IMG/VR virus record: IMGVR_UViG_2537561991_000021 | Source: a virus | Lineage: Duplodnaviria; Heunggongvirae; Uroviricota; Caudoviricetes | DNA: 44,504 bases | Reading direction: 5' to 3' (one strand) | In this document: positions 31,743 to 44,035 of the stretch, one piece after another | Numbering within the stretch: the stretch's first letter is position 1 | How the letters are laid out: each line of letters starts with the position of its first letter | Position numbers and translations under genes: made by a program | The notes under the pieces: generated by a model | What the model was told of the DNA's origin: nothing | The model's database searches: none | What the model saw: the letters and a program-made list of their open reading frames with translations, nothing else

Positions 31743-32102
31743 ATGAAACTGAAGCTGAACAATGTTCGTCTGGCCTTCCCGTCTCTGTTTGAAGCTAAAA
31801 CTGTAAACGGCGAAGGCGATCCGCGTTTCTCCGCAGTATTTTTAATGTCTCCCAAACACCCACAACTGGAAGAAATCCGTAAAGCTATGAAGCAGGTAGC
31901 GAAGGAAAAATGGGGAGAGAAGTGGGAGCCCATTTATAACCAGCTGGAGAAAAAACTCAATCTGTGCCTGCATGATGGTGATGAAAAAGCAGAGTATGAA
32001 GGCTTCCCCGGTAATTTCTTCCTGAATGCTGCTAACAAAGCGCGCCCAGCTGTTCTTGATCGCGATCGTTCGCCACTTATTCAGGCTGACGGACGTCCCT
32101 AT
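31743..32102 (+). pseudogene. putative ssDNA-binding protein, 5' part (split by IS insertion)
   Basis: Reading frame runs into the IS end at 32103 (GTAAGCG); continues in frame at 35642. Confidence 0.6.
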
Positions 32103-32174
32103 GGTAAGCGTACAGCCTGAACCGTCTGGTCAGAATCTGACGAATTAGACAAAGTGGTGTCCACCAAATAAGTA

Positions 32175-32576
32175 GTGGGAACCAAAGTATCAGATATGCA
32201 GAAAAATGTGACTCCCGGCAGGCGAAAAGGCTGCCCTAATTATCCTCCCGAATTTAAACAGCAGCTCGTTGCTGCCTCCTGTGAACCCGGGATATCCATC
32301 TCAAAACTTGCTCTTGAAAATGGCATTAACGCCAATCTGTTGTTCAAATGGCGACAACAATGGCGCGAGGGAAAGCTGCTATTACCTTCTTCAGAGAGCC
32401 CCCAGCTACTTCCTGTGACTCTCGATGCAGCTGCCGAACAGCCAGAATCGCTCGCAGAGGACCCGGAAACCCTCAGTATCAGCTGTGAGGTAACGTTCCG
32501 GCACGGGACGCTCCGCTTCAATGGCAATGTCAGCGAAAAGCTCCTGACTCTGCTGATACAGGAACTGAAGCGATGA
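32175..32576 (+). CDS. IS66-family orfA (short form)
   Basis: 133 aa; GINANLLFKWRQQWREGKLL region shared with the longer orfA-like proteins. Confidence 0.75.
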   Translation: MGTKVSDMQKNVTPGRRKGCPNYPPEFKQQLVAASCEPGISISKLALENGINANLLFKWRQQWREGKLLLPSSESPQLLPVTLDAAAEQPESLAEDPETLSISCEVTFRHGTLRFNGNVSEKLLTLLIQELKR

Positions 32577-32920
32577 TCCCGTTACCTTCCGGGACCAAAA
32601 TTTGGCTGGTTGCCGGTATCACCGATATGAGAAATGGCTTCAACGGCCTGGCTGCGAAAGTACAAACGGCGCTGAAAGACGATCCCATGTCCGGCCATGT
32701 TTTCATTTTCCGGGGCCGCAGCGGCAGTCAGGTTAAACTGCTGTGGTCCACCGGTGACGGACTGTGCCTCCTGACCAAACGGCTGGAGCGTGGGCGCTTC
32801 GCCTGGCCGTCAGCCCGTGATGGCAAAGTGTTCCTTACGCAGGCGCAGCTGGCGATGCTGCTGGAAGGTATCGACTGGCGACAGCCTAAGCGGCTGCTGA
32901 CCTCCCTGACCATGCTGTAA
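32573..32920 (+). CDS. IS66 Orf2-like accessory protein (TnpB)
   Basis: 115 aa, clearly related to the orfB at 33672..34019. Confidence 0.8.
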   Translation: MIPLPSGTKIWLVAGITDMRNGFNGLAAKVQTALKDDPMSGHVFIFRGRSGSQVKLLWSTGDGLCLLTKRLERGRFAWPSARDGKVFLTQAQLAMLLEGIDWRQPKRLLTSLTML

Positions 32921-32994
32921 ATCTCTTTATCCTGGTTGTCAGTAACCGGCTCATTTAAACCGTCTGGTCTGTTTCCTCCGGCTCTACAAAAATA

Positions 32995-33672
32995 ATGTCC
33001 ATCATTTTTAATGGACACTATCGTATGAAACACCGGACCTGGATCACTGAAGCTTTACGTCTTCACTTTGAAGAACATTTACCCCGGGTTGTGGCCGGGC
33101 GTCGCCTGGGTGTACCAAAATCAACAGTTTGTAGTATGTTCGTGCGCTTTCGGAGAGCTGGCCTTTCGTGGCCTTTGCCCGCAGGCATGTCGGAGCAGGA
33201 ACTTGATGCCTGCCTTTACGGACAATTTTCCACGGTACCAGTCGTACGTCCTGAAAGCACCGTTATATCCGAAGCCCCCGTGGTAAAAAAACGTCCCCGG
33301 CGGCCCAACTTCCCTTATGAGTTTAAAATCGCCTTAGTGGAGCAGTCACTGCAGCCCGGAGCCTGTGTGGCGCAGATCGCCCGGGAAAACGGAATCAACG
33401 ATAACCTGCTCTTCAACTGGCGCCATCAATACCGGAAAGGTGGCCTGCTGCCTTCCGGAAAAAATATGCCGGCACTGCTTCCCGTGACGTTAACGCCGGA
33501 GCCGGATAATAAAATCCCGGCCCCCGCACAGGAACCAGAGCAGATAAATACACCGTCCGACAGTCTGTGTTGTGAGCTGGTTCTGCCGGCCGGAACTCTC
33601 AGGCTTAAAGGTAAACTGACGCCGGCGTTATTACAGACACTTATCCGCGAAATAAAAGGGAGCAGCCACTGA
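32995..33672 (+). CDS. IS66-family orfA-like protein with N-terminal HTH
   Basis: 225 aa, about 97% identical to 1387..2064. Confidence 0.8.
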   Translation: MSIIFNGHYRMKHRTWITEALRLHFEEHLPRVVAGRRLGVPKSTVCSMFVRFRRAGLSWPLPAGMSEQELDACLYGQFSTVPVVRPESTVISEAPVVKKRPRRPNFPYEFKIALVEQSLQPGACVAQIARENGINDNLLFNWRHQYRKGGLLPSGKNMPALLPVTLTPEPDNKIPAPAQEPEQINTPSDSLCCELVLPAGTLRLKGKLTPALLQTLIREIKGSSH

Positions 33673-34019
33673 TGATATCTCTCCCTGCAGGTTCGCGTAT
33701 CTGGCTGGTTGCAGGTATCACCGATATGCGAAATGGCTTTAACGGCCTGGCATCAAAAGTTCAGAACGTCCTGAAGGATGACCCGTTCTCCGGACACCTG
33801 TTCATCTTCCGCGGACGCCGGGGTGACCAGATAAAAGTGTTGTGGGCTGACAGTGACGGACTGTGCCTCTTCACCAAACGCCTGGAGCGGGGCCGCTTCG
33901 TCTGGCCAGTCACCCGTGACGGCAAGGTGCACCTTACTCCGGCTCAGTTATCCATGCTTCTTGAAGGTATCAACTGGAAGCACCCGAAACGAACGGAACG
34001 CGCTGGAATCCGCATATAA
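33672..34019 (+). CDS. IS66 Orf2-like accessory protein (TnpB)
   Basis: 115 aa, identical to 1040..1387. Confidence 0.85.
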   Translation: MISLPAGSRIWLVAGITDMRNGFNGLASKVQNVLKDDPFSGHLFIFRGRRGDQIKVLWADSDGLCLFTKRLERGRFVWPVTRDGKVHLTPAQLSMLLEGINWKHPKRTERAGIRI

Positions 34020-34038
34020 CCCGTTGTAAAGTGAGGAT

Positions 34039-35610
34039 ATGGACACCTCACTTGCTCATGAGAACGCCCGCCTGCGGGCACTGTTGCAGACGCAACAGGA
34101 CACCATCCGCCAGATGGCTGAATACAACCGCCTGCTCTCACAGCGGGTGGCGGCTTATGCTTCCGAAATCAACCGGCTGAAGGCGCTGGTTGCGAAACTG
34201 CAACGTATGCAGTTCGGTAAAAGCTCAGAAAAACTTCGTGCAAAAACCGAACGGCAGATACAGGAAGCACAGGAGCGAATCAGCGCACTTCAGGAAGAAA
34301 TGGCGGAAACGCTGGGTGAGCAATATGACCCGGTACTGCCATCCGCCCTGCGCCAGTCTTCAGCCCGTAAACCGTTACCGGCCTCACTTCCCCGTGAAAC
34401 CCGGGTTATCCGGCCGGAAGAGGAATGCTGTCCTGCCTGTGGTGGTGAACTCAGTTCTCTGGGATGTGATGTGTCAGAGCAACTGGAGCTTATCAGCAGC
34501 GCCTTTAAGGTTATCGAAACACAACGTCCGAAACAGGCCTGTTGCCGGTGCGACCATATCGTGCAGGCACCAGTACCTTCAAAACCCATTGCACGCAGTT
34601 ATGCCGGAGCGGGGCTTCTGGCCCATGTTGTCACCGGGAAATATGCAGACCATCTGCCGTTATACCGCCAGTCAGAAATATACCGTCGTCAGGGAGTGGA
34701 GCTGAGCCGTGCCACACTGGGGCGCTGGACAGGTGCTGTTGCTGAACTGCTGGAGCCGCTGTATGACGTCCTGCGCCAGTATGTGCTGATGCCCGGTAAA
34801 GTCCATGCTGATGATATCCCCGTCCCGGTCCAGGAGCCGGGCAGCGGTAAAACCCGGACAGCCCGGCTGTGGGTCTACGTCCGTGATGACCGTAACGCCG
34901 GTTCACAGATGCCCCCGGCGGTCTGGTTCGCGTACAGTCCGGACCGGAAAGGTATCCATCCACAAAATCACCTGGCCGGTTACAGCGGTGTGCTTCAGGC
35001 CGATGCTTACGGTGGTTACCGGGCGTTATACGAATCCGGCAGAATAACGGAAGTCGCGTGTATGGCTCATGCCCGGAGAAAAATCCACGATGTGCATGCA
35101 AGAGCGCCCACCTACATCACCACGGAAGCCCTGCAGCGTATCGGTGAACTGTATGCCATCGAGGCAGAGGTCCGGGGCTGTTCAGCAGAACAGCGTCTGG
35201 CGGCAAGAAAAGCCAGAGCCGCGCCACTGATGCAGTCACTGTATGACTGGATACAGCAACAGATGAAAACACTGTCGCGTCACTCAGATACGGCAAAAGC
35301 GTTCGCATACCTGCTGAAACAGTGGGATGCACTGAACGTGTACTGCAGTAATGGCTGGGTGGAAATCGACAACAACATCGCAGAGAACGCCTTACGGGGA
35401 GTGGCCGTAGGCCGGAAAAACTGGATGTTCGCGGGTTCCGACAGCGGTGGTGAACATGCGGCGGTGTTGTACTCGCTGATCGGCACATGCCGTCTGAACA
35501 ATGTGGAGCCAGAAAAGTGGCTGCGTTACGTCATTGAACATATCCAGGACTGGCCGGCAAACCGGGTACGCGATCTGTTGCCCTGGAAAGTTGATCTGAG
35601 CTCTCAGTAA
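34039..35610 (+). CDS. IS66-family transposase TnpC
   Basis: 523 aa with leucine-zipper-like N-terminus and CPACGG...CxxC zinc motif; right inverted repeat 30 bp downstream. Confidence 0.85.
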
Positions 35611-35888: not shown

Positions 35889-36518
35889 TCACTCAGGAAT
35901 CTTAATCTTTCTCAATTCTTTATTTAGTTCACAGTTCTTTTTCTTAGACGGGAAAGTATCATACATCCAAAAACCAACAGTCTCTAAAACTATTATCATA
36001 ACCATATACACAAGATAATTTAAAAGGCCTTCATTTTGCCCTATGGAAATAATGCAGATAATAGAAAAAAGGGTAAACAGCACAAAACACAGAAAGGAAA
36101 ACAGACGACTAATAATAAATAAAAAACCTGAAAAATCAACATTAATAAAAAACACTCCGTTATCTTTCTCTATATAATTCTGAAGCTTAATCAACTGATT
36201 TATATACTGTCTTTTTTCTAATCTATTGCAAATGTAAATAACATCTCTTCGGTTATAAGATGATTGCAATTTCAGCGCATCACGAATAATTTTATCATTT
36301 ATTCTTTTTTCTATGGCACTCTTATCCTCCTCATCCAGATAACGTTCATACTTAACTAAATATAAAATTAACTTCTTAACATATTTAGGCTCTTTATACT
36401 TATAATTAAAAATGATCTTTCTTATCCAGACTCCCATAACAATCAAACATGAAAAAATATATCCAGCTATTTTCTCCAGATGCTCTGTATGGTCAATCAA
36501 GTATTGGATCATATGCAT
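35889..36518 (-). CDS. AT-rich hypothetical membrane protein, antisense to the early operon
   Basis: 209 aa, Lys/Ile/Tyr/Asn-rich, with hydrophobic helices (IFSCLIVMGVWI, FLFIISRLFSFLCFVLFTLFSIICIISI, YLVYMVMIIVLETVGFWMY); GC far below flanking phage genes. Confidence 0.65.
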   Translation of the reverse strand: MHMIQYLIDHTEHLEKIAGYIFSCLIVMGVWIRKIIFNYKYKEPKYVKKLILYLVKYERYLDEEDKSAIEKRINDKIIRDALKLQSSYNRRDVIYICNRLEKRQYINQLIKLQNYIEKDNGVFFINVDFSGFLFIISRLFSFLCFVLFTLFSIICIISIGQNEGLLNYLVYMVMIIVLETVGFWMYDTFPSKKKNCELNKELRKIKIPE

Positions 36519-36564: not shown

Positions 36565-38628
36565 ATGTCCAATATACTATGGGGCGACCTGGAAACCTAT
36601 TGCGAAATCCCTATTACGAACGGTACCCATGCGTATGCCGAAGGCGTTGAAGTGATGCTTTTCGCATGGGCTATCAACGACGGGCCAGTAAACGTGTGGG
36701 ATATCACTGCCGGTGGTGGTATTCCACACGGCTTATACGAAGCAATCGCAGACCCTGAAACCCTGCTTTATTTCCATAACTCTCACTTCGACCGCACCGT
36801 TCTGCGTTATGCAATGCCGCGCCTGGCACCGCCAGTCGAACGTTGGCGCGACACAATGGTGCAGGCGCTGGCGCACGGTCTCCCGGGGTCTCTGGGGGAA
36901 CTCTGCGAAGTACTAGGCGTCCCGCAAGACAAAGCGAAGGACAAAGAAGGTAAAGCGCTGATCCAGCTGTTCTGTAAGCCACGCCCGAAAAACAGCAAAC
37001 TGCGCCGGGCCACCAGCAAAACCCACCCGGAAGAATGGCGGCGCTTTGTTGCTTACGCCGGACTGGATATCGAGGCAATGCGCGAAGTCTATAAACGTCT
37101 GCCGAAGTGGAATTATCAGGGGACAGAACTGGCGCTCTGGCATCGTGATCAGCAGATCAATGACCGGGGCGTCTGCATGGACGTGGAACTCGCACGCGCT
37201 GCGATCGACGCGGTAGACCAGGAACAAAAGCGCCTGGCAAAGCGTACACAGGAAATGACTGATGGCGAAGTGCAGGCAGCCACACAACGAGACGCGTTGA
37301 TTAAGCACATTGTTGAATCCTACGGTGTGGAGCTACCAGACATGCAACGCAGTACTCTGGAACGTCGTATTGCCGACCCCGATTTACCATCTGCCGTGAA
37401 AGAACTGCTGGCTATCCGCCTGCAGGCCAGTACTACCAGCACCAGTAAATACAAGGCACTGATGAAAGGCGTAAGCCACGACGGGCGCTTACGCGGTACG
37501 CTACAGTTCTGCGGGGCGTCACGTACCGGTCGTTGGGCCGGACGGCTATTCCAGCCCCAGAACCTTCCCCGCCCTTCACTAAAACAGGAACAAATAGACG
37601 AAGGCATCGAAGCACTGAAAGCCGGATGTGCAGACCTGCTGTTTGACAATATCATGGAACTAACCAGTTCAGCGTTACGTGGCTGCATTATCGCGCCAAC
37701 AGGCAAAAAGCTGGTGGTAAGTGACTTGTCGAACATTGAAGGCCGTATGCTGGCATGGCTGGCGGGAGAAGAATGGAAACTGAATGCATTCAGAGAGTAC
37801 GACGCCGGAACGGGTCCGGACTTATATAAACTGGCGTATGCAAAAGCTTTCGATATTGCACCAGATGATGTTGATAAACACATGCGTCAGATCGGTAAAG
37901 TCATGGAACTCGGTCTGGGTTATGGTGGTGGTGTGTCGGCCTTCATCACTTTTGCACTGGTTTACGGTCTCGATCTCGACGAGCTGGCGAACGCCGCACT
38001 ACCAAACATTCCCCGCGATGTTATCCGCGAGGCGAAAAGCTGGTACGACGAATCGGTTAAACGCAAGTCAACCTACGGGCTTTCTGAACGGGTATTTATC
38101 GCCTGCGACTCACTTAAACGTCTCTGGCGCCGGGCGCATCCCGCGACCTGTGATTTCTGGTACGAACTGGAGCGCACCGTCCGCACTGCAATCGCCACAC
38201 CGCAAAAAACATTGTATTGCGGTTATCTTAAAATCCGCCGCGATGGCGCGTGGCTGCGCATACAGCTACCATCCGGACGCGCTGTATGCTACCCGTCTCC
38301 GGTTATCGAAAAAGGGAATATCACCTACATGGGGGTTAACTCTTATTCGCGTAAATGGCAACGACTCAAAACCTACGGCGGAAAGCTGGTGGAGAACATC
38401 ACCCAGGCGGCCGCCCGCGACATTCTGGCCGGAAACATGCCGCTTATCGAAGATGCCGGTTACAGCATTGTGCTGACGGTACACGACGAGGTGATCACCG
38501 AAGCACCTGACACAGAAGATTTCAACGATAAAGCGCTTTCCGCGCTTCTCTCCACTGACCCCGAATGGGCGCCCGATATCCCACTGAACGCTGGCGGTTT
38601 TGAGGCGTACCACTACAAAAAAGATTGA
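36565..38628 (+). CDS. family A DNA polymerase with 3'-5' exonuclease domain
   Basis: Exonuclease motifs [23 protein letters not shown]; polymerase motif A DLSNIEGR, motif [17 protein letters not shown], motif C VHDEV. Confidence 0.9.
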
Positions 38629-38692
38629 TATAACTCACCTTATCGAGCTATGGCGACATGCTGAATTCGAGTAAATTAAAGGAACAATACTT

Positions 38693-39454
38693 ATGCAGGA
38701 ACTAACTGAAATGCCGATCACCTATCCATACCCGAGAGAAACTTTTCCTGACTTTTTGAGGGAGTGTGGGTTCACCAATTTTTCCCACGAACAGCGTGAG
38801 ACTTGTGACTGCTATCGTTTAACGAATGGCGTAATTGTTAACCTTTACACCACCCGGACCATTCAGTTTCAAGGTAACCCTCAAGAACGTCCCAATGTTG
38901 AAACTGCAATAATGACCCATTTAGGAACGCCGCCCACGGCAACACCACTAGCCGTAGAACAGCCATCTGAGCTCCCCAAAAAGATATTCATTGTTCACGG
39001 CCATGACCATACTGCAAAGGAGCAACTTGAGCTAATCCTTCATAAACTTGGATTACCAGACCATTTCATTTTGCAGAATACGGGAGGGACTGGACTCACC
39101 ATTATTGAAGAGCTTGAACGTGAAATTGGGCAAGGACAAACTGCTACCCGTTTCGGGATTGTTCTTTTGACACCTGATGATATGGGATACTCAAAGCGCG
39201 CCGGTGAAGCAGAAATCCAACCCCGCGCAAGACAGAACGTTGTACTCGAGATGGGTATGCTTCTTTCGTCCTTAGGGCGCAGCAATGTAGCAATCCTTCA
39301 GAAACAGCACCTAGAACAGCCTTCTGATGCTAACGGGATTTTGTATCTGAATTTCAACGACCATGTACGTGAAACAGTTCCTCGTCTAGTGCAACGGTTA
39401 CAAAATTCTGGTTTCGAATTTACACAAGCTCAAATAGCTAACGCTTCCTCGTAA
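38693..39454 (+). CDS. TIR-like domain protein (predicted nucleotide-binding TIR-like fold) with a unique N-terminal domain
   Basis: 253 aa; C-terminal region KIFIVHGHDH...GIVLLTPDDMG...ARQNVVLEMGMLLSSLGRSNVAILQ...PSDANGILYL matches the recalled consensus of the TIR-like nucleotide-binding family. Lower GC than neighbours; own RBS and terminator. Confidence 0.6.
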   Translation: MQELTEMPITYPYPRETFPDFLRECGFTNFSHEQRETCDCYRLTNGVIVNLYTTRTIQFQGNPQERPNVETAIMTHLGTPPTATPLAVEQPSELPKKIFIVHGHDHTAKEQLELILHKLGLPDHFILQNTGGTGLTIIEELEREIGQGQTATRFGIVLLTPDDMGYSKRAGEAEIQPRARQNVVLEMGMLLSSLGRSNVAILQKQHLEQPSDANGILYLNFNDHVRETVPRLVQRLQNSGFEFTQAQIANASS

Positions 39455-39477
39455 TTACCCCTTATTGTTGATTACAA

Positions 39478-39502
39478 CCCTGCATCGCGGGGTTTTTTAT
39501 TT
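39478..39502 (+). terminator. rho-independent terminator after the TIR-like gene
   Basis: CCCTGC-ATC-GCGGGG stem (one G-U pair) followed by TTTTTTATTT. Confidence 0.7.
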
Positions 39503-39517
39503 GGGAATAAAAACCCT

Positions 39518-39652
39518 ATGTCATTTAAATACCGGGACAGTCCGCTTTATTACCGGACTGTGCGGGAGGCTTTGCACCTTGAACAGTCCGGCGGGTACGA
39601 CCGGGCGATGCAGGTCTGGGCCAAAGCGAACGTCGGTTTGATTTTTGTCTGA
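39518..39652 (+). CDS. small hypothetical protein (44 aa)
   Basis: ATG ORF MSFKYRDSPLYYRTVREALHLEQSGGYDRAMQVWAKANVGLIFV between the terminator and the zinc-finger gene; below the ORF-track cutoff. Confidence 0.3.
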   Translation: MSFKYRDSPLYYRTVREALHLEQSGGYDRAMQVWAKANVGLIFV

Positions 39653-39688
39653 TGCAGAACATGCGCGAAAAGCGTAAGGAGGTGGACG

Positions 39689-39883
39689 ATGTCTAATATC
39701 GATAATAAGGGTTGGGGGTTCCCCGCTCTGTCAAAAAAAGCACATTTCTTTAATTCGGGGGAAGCCATATCACTATGCGGAAAATGGATGTTCATAGGTA
39801 TCAGGATTGATGAATGGCATGACCATCCTGAGAACTGCGCTATCTGCATGAAGAAACGCAAAAAGCAGGAAGGCGAAAGCTAA
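39689..39883 (+). CDS. small zinc-finger-like protein
   Basis: 64 aa with a strong AAGGAGG RBS; Cys/His cluster (C...HDHPENCAIC); stop overlaps the VRR-NUC start (TAATG). Confidence 0.55.
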   Translation: MSNIDNKGWGFPALSKKAHFFNSGEAISLCGKWMFIGIRIDEWHDHPENCAICMKKRKKQEGES

Positions 39884-40170
39884 TGGCCTATGAACGTGAA
39901 AACCTAATCGAAAAGCACCTCGTCGCTGAAGTAAAAAAGGCTGGCGGGGTTGCCTTTAAGTTCGTATCCCCCGGTCGCCGCTCGGTACCAGATCGCATTG
40001 TTCTGCTACCCGGCGGTCGTATCATTTTCGTTGAATGTAAATCCCCCGGCAAGCCACCACGGCCTGACCAGTTGCGCGAACACGGACGGTTGCGCGCGCT
40101 GGGCTTTACCGTAGTGGTGCTGGATAGCAAAAATCTGGAGGCCATTATTTTAAGCCGCAATAAAGGATAA
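39883..40170 (+). CDS. VRR-NUC domain nuclease
   Basis: 95 aa; PD-(D/E)XK-type residues in DRIVLLPGGRIIFVECKSPGK, as in VRR-NUC proteins. Confidence 0.7.
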   Translation: MAYERENLIEKHLVAEVKKAGGVAFKFVSPGRRSVPDRIVLLPGGRIIFVECKSPGKPPRPDQLREHGRLRALGFTVVVLDSKNLEAIILSRNKG

Positions 40171-40182
40171 AAGACTTATGCT

Positions 40183-40980
40183 TTAATCCGTATTTTTAAC
40201 ACGTATTTCGAAACACCCTTTTAATTTAGCTATTTCCTTTTTAGAGGACATGATTGTGAATCTCATCCCTTTTAAATCATTAACAAATTCAAATTTTGCG
40301 CTATTTGACTCACAATCACCAACAACAAAACCACTACCAAATGAATTGAGCAACACTTTAGTATTACTACCATCTACCATATAATATTCGTTATTTTTAA
40401 ATGCAGTAACCTTCCCGAATGTATAGCTCAATATCAACAACGTTATCACCCCTAAAGGAAAAGCTGACTTTAGGATTTTTAAATCGATATAATAAAATAC
40501 GTTCTTATACTCTGCAAGCCTCCCAAATTTTCTAATGCTCTCCATATGATGTTCGTGTCTCTTACTATGGATTGGCATGGACACCACATTGTGATAATTC
40601 AACAAAAGCATAGCAAATAATAAAATATCCTGAACACTCATCACAGAAGTTTCGGAGAAATAACCAAAAGGCCAATGAAATCCTATTATACAAATATTAG
40701 CCATTAGCATAACAACTATAAATACAATAAATGGAACATAATATTTCCCTTTCAAATCAAACATCAACGCCGCATATAAGGCGCCGAGAAATAAAAAACT
40801 AAAAAACAAAAGCCACACAGCCGAATACAATAGCGTATTTAAGTCTATTTTAATAAAAAGGTCTGGATAGCCATAATACGATGCAACACCTTTCTGAAAA
40901 GAATATGCCATCGCATAAGCTAACGCTGAAAACATAGTTAATAAAGAAACTTGCTTTGTAAATATTTTCGCCAGGGGCAT
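40183..40980 (-). CDS. AT-rich polytopic membrane protein with C-terminal soluble domain, antisense to the early operon
   Basis: 265 aa; strong GGAGG RBS; five or more hydrophobic helices in the N-terminal 150 aa and a soluble C-terminal domain of about 110 aa; very low GC. Confidence 0.65.
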   Translation of the reverse strand: MPLAKIFTKQVSLLTMFSALAYAMAYSFQKGVASYYGYPDLFIKIDLNTLLYSAVWLLFFSFLFLGALYAALMFDLKGKYYVPFIVFIVVMLMANICIIGFHWPFGYFSETSVMSVQDILLFAMLLLNYHNVVSMPIHSKRHEHHMESIRKFGRLAEYKNVFYYIDLKILKSAFPLGVITLLILSYTFGKVTAFKNNEYYMVDGSNTKVLLNSFGSGFVVGDCESNSAKFEFVNDLKGMRFTIMSSKKEIAKLKGCFEIRVKNTD

Positions 40981-42438: not shown

Positions 42439-42635
42439 GCGAGAAACCCGACGATTTACTCACCCCGGATGAAGTATGCCAAAAGTTAGGTATTACACAG
42501 AAAACGCTATGTGAGTGGAATATTAAGCATCGTCATCGGGCTATCCTGGCACCAATTCGTTTCAGTGCAAAAGTAGTTCGTTATGAGCGCCGAAATATCG
42601 ACGCTTTTATTCAAAAATGTCGCAGCCAGTATTAA
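42435..42635 (+). CDS. xis: excisionase / AlpA-like DNA-binding protein
   Basis: 66 aa; LLTPDEVCQKLGITQKTL HTH with downstream basic region; last gene of the early operon, converging on the integrase. Confidence 0.6.
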   Translation: MSEKPDDLLTPDEVCQKLGITQKTLCEWNIKHRHRAILAPIRFSAKVVRYERRNIDAFIQKCRSQY

Positions 42636-44035
42636 CCTCGCCGCCGTAGCAATGCCACCTGCGCAAGTATGCTCCGCTCGTGAGCCTCGAAAGCTTCGCG
42701 CTTCAACGCAATCTCTTCCTGTAAAATCTCATCAGAAAAGTCGTAATGTTCTGCCATCGGGTCATCTGACTTGCTGGAGTGGTGAAGGCAAAGGAGGCTG
42801 ATTTCCCTTCGGTCTGAGCGGGAATAGCCTCTTTCCTTCATCAAGGCAATAACATTGCTCTTAAGGAATTTACGGCACATCGTATTAAATGCACCGTCTT
42901 TCCCTTTAACAGTCCCATCATGTTTTATTCCTTTTACAGCCCCGTCCGGGCTGTATGTTTTCACCAGCTTATCCAGTGATCGTTTTGAAAATGGCTGCAT
43001 TGGATCACGTGGCTGCAAAAATACATAATCCCTGTTGCACTCAGGAACTGAATCACGCCAGGCTTTCTGCTCGTCGATAATCCGCCGGATCTCAGGGGTT
43101 ATCGGCAGGCGGAAAGCCTTTTGTGTTTTCATAGCCCCTCGCATGCCGATAACCCCTTCCGGATAAACAATTTCACCAGCCTCCTCGTGAACGTAGTCCC
43201 AGCGCAGGTTATGGACATTAATCGGACGAACACCAGTGATGATCATGAAGCGAACAGCATTCTTCTGGTGTACAGAGGTGCAGGCAGCAACATTGAGCCA
43301 GAGTCGGGCGATTGATTCAATATCGGTAAAAAGCCGTGTGGGGGTAGGTTTCTGTACGCGGGAGGAAACATAATCATCTGGCAGACTGGCGGCAACATTG
43401 CGGCCGTTGCAAAGAGTAGGTGCGCAGAACTTCCAGAACCGACGGAGCTCGGCAAACAACTCCAGGGCGTTATTGTTCGAGCGAGTAGCGATCCACTCGT
43501 CCAGCACTTCCACCAGCCGATTGTATGTTACGTCGCTGAACACCTCGCGCTCGCCGAACGTTGCTTTAATCCGGTCGATACGCACCCCGTAGGTTGTGAA
43601 ACTGTCCGGGCTCAGCTTCTGCCGGGCGACTTTGGCTTTGAGGTCATCCCGGTACATTTCCAGCGCTGCATGTACGGACTCTGCCCGCAGGCCACCGTCA
43701 GCCATACCTAGCGCTTTTTCGCGCGCCAGCTGGATAGCGAGCTCCGGCCACTCGCCGAGCTTTTTACCTTTGAGGCCCATCTTTTTTGGAAACTCGGCGT
43801 AAAATGTAACCTTACCGGCTTTGCTGAAATCGATACGGAGATAGTTCTCTTTTTCGTATTTGGAACGGCGAGCCACGCCGGAAGCAGCGAGGATGATTTT
43901 GGCGGCAGCAACACAGATTTTCATGTGTGCGCTAGTATAGGGGGGTTTACAGGCGTCCCATTTTTCAGAAGCGGCTAAAACATCGTCATTATTGGGGCTA
44001 TCCGGATTATGTGTTACAGTGCGCGGCATTCTCAA
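42632..44035 (-). CDS. int: tyrosine-type site-specific integrase
   Basis: C-terminal catalytic region (GVRPINVHNLRWDY, LLCLHHS, EHYDFS) with a candidate arm-binding N-terminal domain. The ORF-track start is TTG; the true start is probably an internal ATG. Confidence 0.75.
   Translation of the reverse strand: MRMPRTVTHNPDSPNNDDVLAASEKWDACKPPYTSAHMKICVAAAKIILAASGVARRSKYEKENYLRIDFSKAGKVTFYAEFPKKMGLKGKKLGEWPELAIQLAREKALGMADGGLRAESVHAALEMYRDDLKAKVARQKLSPDSFTTYGVRIDRIKATFGEREVFSDVTYNRLVEVLDEWIATRSNNNALELFAELRRFWKFCAPTLCNGRNVAASLPDDYVSSRVQKPTPTRLFTDIESIARLWLNVAACTSVHQKNAVRFMIITGVRPINVHNLRWDYVHEEAGEIVYPEGVIGMRGAMKTQKAFRLPITPEIRRIIDEQKAWRDSVPECNRDYVFLQPRDPMQPFSKRSLDKLVKTYSPDGAVKGIKHDGTVKGKDGAFNTMCRKFLKSNVIALMKERGYSRSDRREISLLCLHHSSKSDDPMAEHYDFSDEILQEEIALKREAFEAHERSILAQVALLRRRG

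Follow-up and report, generated by a model that had tools for sequence, protein, structure and literature searches.

The window, the whole 44,504-nucleotide stretch of DNA that was analysed (IMG/VR record IMGVR_UViG_2537561991_000021), is a near-complete Escherichia coli prophage with its integration site beside yfhL/shoB. Its replication module carries, 3' of a family-A DNA polymerase gene, an open reading frame (ORF) that encodes a protein of 253 amino acids. An initial annotation, made from the letters of the DNA alone, had pointed to three motifs in this product, FIVHGHD, LLTPDD and ARQNVVLEMG, and had read them as marks of a TIR-like fold. The ORF at 38693..39454 contains all three. It joins an N-terminal TBP-like lobe, through a linker, to a C-terminal TIR domain of the CAP12/PycTIR type. 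The protein is best read, with a probability of roughly 0.55, as a single-protein abortive-infection defence that acts through TIR-mediated depletion of nicotinamide adenine dinucleotide (NAD+). Neither the gene itself nor its identity as a TIR gene is new, because RefSeq annotates it as 'TIR domain-containing protein' and its family is a catalogued candidate. The placing of the N-domain together with its hybrid-contact motif, and the sharing of this lobe among four effector types, appear to be new.

The gene and its parts, all on the plus strand, are:

38679..38684, +, Shine-Dalgarno-like AAGGAA, 8 nt 5' of the ATG, as read from the sequence
38693..39454, +, ORF of 253 residues (TBP-like lobe, linker and CAP12/PycTIR-type TIR domain), a member of PDC-S35 and PHROG 16442
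38693..38926, +, N-terminal domain, residues 1-78, with a folded core of beta-alpha-beta4-alpha topology at residues 8-77
38927..38980, +, linker, residues 79-96, variable and predicted to be disordered (predicted local distance difference test score, pLDDT, below 50 at residues 80-92; length and composition vary in the alignment)
38981..39412, +, TIR-like domain, residues 97-240, with very high conservation across the family
39248..39250, +, GAG codon of E186, the predicted catalytic glutamate, equivalent to SfSTING E84 (hidden Markov model (HMM) alignment to 7un8 and the published site)
39476..39504, +, intrinsic-terminator-like hairpin and T-tract

The gene has its own ribosome-binding site, the AAGGAA listed above, as the initial annotation had it. 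The terminator described there as strong is present. It consists of a hairpin with an 8-bp stem, five of the pairs being G-C (39476..39494), followed by TTTTTATTT, and is canonical in shape. Its strength is moderate, with a centroid energy of -11.3 kcal/mol and z=-1.9 in a 58-nt context.

The TIR domain and its predicted active site

A profile search recovered the TIR-like C-terminal fold, on the detection of which the initial annotation had staked its interpretation. The Pfam family PF10137 (CAP12/Pycsar effector TIR domain) matches residues 97-222 with E=2.9e-31 and 108.4 bits against a gathering threshold of 24.7 bits, and the match spans positions 1-118 of the 119 in the profile. The NAD+ hydrolase (NADase) site of SfSTING is made of R78, N80 and the catalytic E84, together with D110 of the opposing subunit (PMC9402430). 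Their counterparts in the HMM alignment are R180, N182, E186 and D212 of the prophage protein, with identical spacing (R-x-N-x3-E, then 26 residues to the D). All four are invariant in 38 of 38 homologues, which have 51-93% overall identity, and about 60 columns are invariant in the TIR half of the family alignment. E186 therefore corresponds to the catalytic glutamate of TIR NADases that the initial annotation had proposed to look for. The invariance of the four site residues indicates that the catalytic machinery of the TIR half is intact and under strong purifying selection. From this conserved site the domain is predicted to cleave NAD+. Characterised TIR domains of the PF10137 type are regarded as NAD+-depleting effectors.

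In a very improbable alternative the substrate of the TIR-like domain would be not NAD+ but a nucleic acid or nucleotide bound to the lobe, and the domain would be, for example, an N-glycosidase on (modified) duplex bases, a nuclease or a 2',3'-cyclic nucleotide monophosphate (cNMP) synthetase. Such an activity would fit the joining of a duplex-binding-type lobe to a fold that has nucleotide N-glycosidase relatives. TBP-like domains are also found as the N-terminal partners of DNA glycosylases, and some plant TIR domains have nuclease or 2',3'-cNMP synthetase activity. Yet the residues of the SfSTING NAD+ site are kept one for one and at the same spacing, and the characterised PF10137-type members that were encountered are NADases. 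In addition, the long flexible linker is better suited to an oligomerisation-based coupling of sensor and effector than to the positioning of a substrate.

The best structural and profile match to the TIR half is Cap12/TIR-STING (SfSTING; 7un8, 9lmq), which belongs to the same PF10137 sub-family. By analogy, the effector ends are probably alike, each a NADase activated by ligand-driven oligomerisation. The prophage protein, however, has no STING domain and its domain order is reversed, the sensor being N-terminal. The prophage also differs in its gene content; no CD-NTase gene is present among the annotated genes of an identical prophage or of the phage 606R2 region. With 34.8 and 30.5 bits, the NCBIfam Cap12 equivalogs stay far below their 450-bit cut-off, and they match residues 153-239 only. 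PycTIR of the Pycsar system (8jsj) is an NAD+-depleting effector of the same TIR sub-family, and the PADLOC PycTIR model gives a partial match (E=1e-8, residues 132-234). The prophage protein differs from PycTIR in having no cNMP-binding domain, and the prophage has no gene for a pyrimidine cyclase (PycC). From Thoeris it is set apart by the lack of a ThsB-type TIR match in Pfam and of a Thoeris match in PADLOC, and by the lack of an adjacent effector gene. The SPARTA TIR domain 8ifk was among the Foldseek matches. When the whole model was used for fold searches, the matches were mostly generic flavodoxin-like and CheY receiver domains, and no clear signal for the N-domain emerged.

The N-terminal lobe, its partners and a possible trigger

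The initial annotation had distinguished an N-terminal domain of about 80 residues and had called it unplaceable. A separate domain does exist (residues 1-78), and it can be placed. Its profile matches and motif point to a single TBP-like lobe of the type found in the RNase HIII N-domain and in the NTD/NRD of RnlA/LsoA. AlphaFold predicts residues 8-77 with confidence (pLDDT about 90), alike in the full-length and the isolated models. The Pfam family RnlA_toxin (PF15935) matches 10 of the 38 family members, the best with E=8.5e-4, and DUF3378, which is the RNase HIII N-domain (PMC3597702), matches two. The top two PDB matches of a profile built from the N-domain only were RNase HIII 3vn5 (E=0.16, marginal) and LsoA 5hy3 (E=0.47); both are weak and both are aligned on the same motif. 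An hhalign comparison of the family alignment with a single E. coli RnlA sequence was uninformative, with a probability of only 1.9%; it picked the TGxxQxQG motif in the RnlA NRD.

The motif shared by these matches, Y52-x-T54-x-T56-x-Q-x-Q60-G61, is spaced like Tyr43, Ser45, Ser47 and Gly52 of Thermovibrio RNase H3. In the hybrid complex of that enzyme these residues stack on sugars of the DNA strand, bind one of its phosphates and make contact with a 2'-OH of the RNA (PMC4132731). Among the 38 homologues an aromatic residue at position 52, Q60 and G61 are present in all, T54 in 36, T56 in 34, and a lysine or arginine at position 42 in 36. Except for the motif positions the N-domain is variable between homologues, and its net charge is neutral to acidic. 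The N-domain thus appears to keep the RNase H3 motif that contacts RNA/DNA hybrids, and binding of a hybrid is predicted. RNase HIII (4py5, 3vn5; DUF3378) has the N-domain alone in common with the prophage protein, which contains no RNase H (type 2 fold) catalytic domain and whose lobe is not basic. In RnlA/LsoA (6y2r, 7aex, 5hy3; Pfam RnlA_toxin) the effector is a HEPN RNase, whereas that of the prophage protein is a TIR domain. RnlA and LsoA also need an antitoxin gene, rnlB or lsoB, whereas no rnlB-like partner lies by the prophage TIR gene.

The N-domain profile was searched against 1.84 billion representative proteins and gave 835 matches at E<=1e-3. Fusion partners were tallied for the 23 matches of at least 190 residues within the best 150 of the 835. 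The partner in these 23 representatives is a TIR domain in 14, an AvcD-like dCTP deaminase in three, a multi-transmembrane region in one and a second N-domain in tandem in one; the rest carry unknown domains. One deaminase fusion, P0243 (617 residues), matches the PADLOC dCTPase profile with E=7e-173. That profile matches the fusions only from its position 119-142 on, and the TBP-like lobe therefore replaces the usual N-terminus. The occurrence of the N-domain with TIR, dCTP deaminase and transmembrane effectors, and probably with the HEPN effector of RnlA/LsoA, is the usual pattern of abortive-infection proteins, in which the sensor is constant and the effector is swapped. The fusion proteins P0243, P0204, P0229, P0193 and P0158 comprise the dCTP deaminase, multi-transmembrane and tandem forms.

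In the proposed mechanism the N-terminal TBP-like lobe would be the sensor and the C-terminal Cap12/PycTIR-type TIR domain the effector, with the flexible linker between them. In the resting state the TIR domains would be apart and inactive, because, as judged from TIR-STING, the active site is completed only by a neighbouring subunit. Upon infection by another phage the N-domain would bind its trigger. The likeliest trigger would be a double-stranded nucleic acid, for example an RNA/DNA hybrid, the ligand of the homologous RNase H3 N-domain. Molecules lying side by side on the ligand, or a rearrangement induced by it, would then bring the TIR domains together and complete a composite active site made of E186, R180 and N182 plus D212 of the neighbouring subunit. 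NAD+ would be hydrolysed and the infected cell would no longer support phage growth. Activation through oligomerisation is modelled on the TIR-STING paradigm, and expression in the lysogen is presumed. A duplex trigger, most plausibly an RNA/DNA hybrid along which several molecules line up, is suggested by the homology to RNase H3 and is offered here tentatively.

It is rather unlikely that the same defence architecture senses a protein instead. The TBP-like lobe would then respond to a phage protein, or to a host factor that is lost or bound, and protein-induced oligomerisation would activate the TIR NADase. The neutral to acidic charge of the N-domain would suit such a trigger, and its strong variation outside the motif is what is expected of a surface that co-evolves with phage proteins. 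The TBP-like domains of DNA glycosylases do not bind DNA (Table 1, PMC3597702), and RnlA and LsoA, which have the most similar bacterial domains, are governed by the protein antitoxins RnlB and Dmd (PMC3710099). What is conserved in the N-domain, however, is not a variable surface but the set of residues equivalent to those that contact the hybrid in RNase H3.

The PDC-S35 family gains a concrete and testable sensor hypothesis, a TBP-like lobe with the RNase H3 hybrid-contact motif. If the hybrid trigger is true, the protein would be a minimal nucleic-acid-sensing NADase with a possible use as a biosensor, and RnlA/LsoA, AvcD-like deaminases and TIR effectors would be linked by one sensing principle. 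A bolder form of the idea, possible though doubtful, is that the lobe of about 75 residues is a portable pattern-recognition module for duplex nucleic acid, specifically the RNA/DNA hybrids that arise as a phage replicates or transcribes, which bacteria and their mobile elements would join to interchangeable suicide effectors (TIR NADase, AvcD-like dCTP deaminase, multi-transmembrane effector and the HEPN RNase of RnlA/LsoA), and that the gene encodes a guide-independent, one-protein TIR receptor. Such a receptor would be functionally a SPARTA without the Argonaute, and would suggest a purpose for the long-unexplained TBP-like domains of RnlA/LsoA. SPARTA (short pAgo plus TIR-APAZ) resembles the prophage system only in how it works, since recognition of an RNA/DNA duplex there leads to TIR oligomerisation and NAD+ depletion. 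It consists of two proteins with a guide-dependent Argonaute, whereas the prophage system has neither Argonaute nor APAZ and its TIR domain belongs to a different sub-family.

The family and the case for defence

The initial annotation had proposed a candidate defence module, and the full-length protein is listed independently as such by PADLOC. The single-gene candidate PDC-S35 (PDLC05003) matches with E=6.8e-109, residues 10-253 aligning with positions 3-245 of the 245 in the profile, and PHROG 16442 (function not known) matches with E=2.4e-109. The prophage protein is a full-length member with the same two-domain, single-gene architecture and no sequence difference that would set it apart. 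The architecture of about 250 residues is widespread, with 2700 proteins at E<=1e-5, and homologues more than 50% identical occur in Vibrio, Vreelandella and Vicinamibacterales. A recent systematic survey of bacterial TIR immunity deliberately excluded single-protein TIR effectors.

Homologues are found in several kinds of setting. One lies in a V. cholerae integrative element that also carries a gene for a TrwC relaxase, another next to an integrase gene, Mrr and PemK, and a third in a conjugative element. In Vreelandella the homologue (L018 7863..8543) is directly 5' of a DUF4062 gene, followed by a reverse transcriptase gene and three toxin-antitoxin pairs (ParDE/YoeB). A 2026 preprint reports the DUF4062 family as the 'Evangelion' anti-phage defence, and the Vreelandella locus looks like a compact defence island. 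Among 50,697 phage records the only carriers of the gene are three temperate E. coli phages and one Salmonella fragment; none of the virulent phages has it. A partner gene, whether an antitoxin, a cyclase or a ThsA-like gene, was considered and rejected; the neighbours differ in every context examined. Defence is favoured over counter-defence, the other role named in the initial annotation, because there is no conserved partner, because homologues lie in defence islands and mobile elements, and because the N-domain is fused to other effectors of the abortive type. The evidence, though consistent, is indirect, and this choice is a matter of inference.

Several points weigh against a defence that protects the lysogen through NAD+ depletion. 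First, AlphaFold2 predicts the TIR half with mediocre confidence (pLDDT 53-88). Second, PDC-S35 is a computational candidate only, and no experiment on the family was found in the searchable literature (PDC-S35, COG4271, the preprint on PADLOC candidates and two TIR/defence surveys). Third, replication of the phage itself would also make RNA/DNA hybrids, and how self-activation would be avoided is unexplained. Fourth, a scan of 38300..40000 for the sigma-70 consensus found no promoter for the TIR gene. It has the same orientation as the polymerase gene, and 64 nt separate its start from the end of that gene. With this arrangement and no promoter found, its transcription may occur only as part of that of the repressed replication operon, which would be a poor fit to a lysogen-protecting role. 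The homologous loci of Serratia and Salmonella likewise have no sigma-70 match upstream of the gene, matches being found only inside the gene or on the opposite strand. Searches of the literature for the names of the carrier phages returned unrelated papers only.

The inserted cassette and the replication module

The cassette and other genes of the prophage are:

36565..38628, +, family-A DNA polymerase gene, the upstream neighbour; its final four codons lie within cassette-specific sequence
38617..39514, no strand assigned, inserted cassette of 898 bp, GC 0.441, replacing a polymerase/ANR junction of about 14 bp (blastn against the TIR-less relatives L003, L004 and L005)
39518..39696, +, ANR-family regulator gene, truncated or frameshifted, the downstream neighbour (RefSeq annotation of the identical locus L001)
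39883..40170, VRR-NUC gene
42632..44035, integrase gene

Pairwise blastn homology to the TIR-less relatives ends at 38616 and restarts at 39515, and these breakpoints define the cassette. Its extent is close to the segment 38629..39502 that had been singled out as inserted cargo, so that this part of the initial annotation was borne out, together with the position of the gene between the polymerase and VRR-NUC genes. The lower GC content noted there was also found: the TIR ORF has 0.457, the polymerase gene 0.543 and the helicase gene 0.540. In the three TIR-less relatives sampled, the polymerase stop is followed by 5 bp, ANR, then DUF4406 and then VRR-NUC; their ANR gene is intact and directly adjoins the polymerase gene.

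Five complete genomes carry the cassette at 100% identity, and three induced temperate phages (vB_EcoM-606R2, 689R2 and 611R5) carry it at 98.7%. Of 5426 complete E. coli genomes, 37 have a TIR gene of the window type. Another 10 have an allele of a second group, which shares 90-100% identity with that of LH50-c (L006); in the four with comparable coordinates (LH50-c, L6-21, ECZP248 and STEC383) it lies directly 3' of the polymerase gene. As the neighbouring 3' half of the polymerase gene occurs in 158 E. coli genomes, about 30% of the prophage family (about 47/158) has a TIR allele. The slot is shared by a Serratia marcescens prophage that carries the TIR gene; in a Salmonella prophage of the same type the gene occupies another slot, upstream of the polymerase gene. 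The TIR gene is thus accessory cargo in a variable slot of the replication module and not a fixed part of the module. The view that it does not belong to the replication machinery holds; most related prophages are without it, and universal conservation with a replication role was not what the relatives showed.

Directly 3' of the polymerase gene in E. coli prophages, the TIR gene comes in three or more allelic types (L006 6083..6826 among them), with 72-74% amino acid identity to the window protein. The N-domains of these types are far more divergent than their TIR domains, a difference that is consistent with diversifying pressure on a putative sensor.

The DUF4406 gene (nucleoside-deoxyribosyltransferase-like) is missing from both TIR-carrying arrangements examined, the window type and L006; the segments concerned are window 39515..39883 and L003 6035..6546. 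Its co-absence with the TIR gene could reflect function or shared ancestry. The TIR gene as a homologous replacement of DUF4406 in a single event was rejected, since conserved ANR sequence separates the two changes.

These arrangements bear on an improbable reading in which the gene benefits its own phage during lytic growth or induction, for instance as a counter-defence enzyme that destroys an immune signal (NAD-derived or a nucleotide), as a superinfection-exclusion factor produced along with the replication genes, or as a nucleotide-metabolism enzyme standing in for DUF4406. The co-orientation with the polymerase gene at 64-nt spacing and the lack of a recognisable promoter are in its favour. 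So are the presence of DUF4406 between ANR and VRR-NUC in the sampled TIR-less relatives and its absence where the TIR gene is carried. TIR-like domains and N-glycosidases of the nucleoside-deoxyribosyltransferase/MilB type, moreover, have a common fold and a catalytic glutamate (extended-data legend, PMC9402430). On the other side, the TIR cassette and the replacement of DUF4406 are two changes with a conserved ANR between them, and roughly 70% of the related prophages do without the gene. Close full-length homologues occur in non-phage settings (defence islands, conjugative and integrative elements), whereas virulent phages have none in the records searched. The N-domain is also fused to the dCTP deaminase, a validated defence effector type.

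The copy of the prophage in the window is probably replication-defective, though its polymerase gene and TIR ORF are intact. A gene for an Enc34-type single-stranded DNA-binding protein (DUF2815) is interrupted near residues 116-125 of about 180 (region 31743..35610) because of IS66-family insertions. A partial tnpA/tnpB copy of this family lies at 32175..32920, followed by a tnpA-like ORF, tnpB and tnpC at 32995..35610.

Other small genes flank the cassette. An ORF of 64 residues that contains cysteines and histidines lies at 39689..39883, between ANR and VRR-NUC in the window. Two minus-strand ORFs of very low GC have long hydrophobic stretches, one at 35889..36518 (GC 0.29, 209 residues) and one at 40183..40980 (GC 0.33, 265 residues). 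Among the small or low-GC ORFs on either side, VRR-NUC alone gave a match in Pfam and PADLOC. The two low-GC ORFs occupy the interval between the single-stranded DNA-binding protein and polymerase genes and that between the VRR-NUC and helicase genes. At these two slots the relatives carry Nmad5, antA, a Dcm methyltransferase, DUF4145 and other genes. In this widespread family of E. coli prophages the replication module therefore offers three or more cargo hotspots, and these deserve to be mined.

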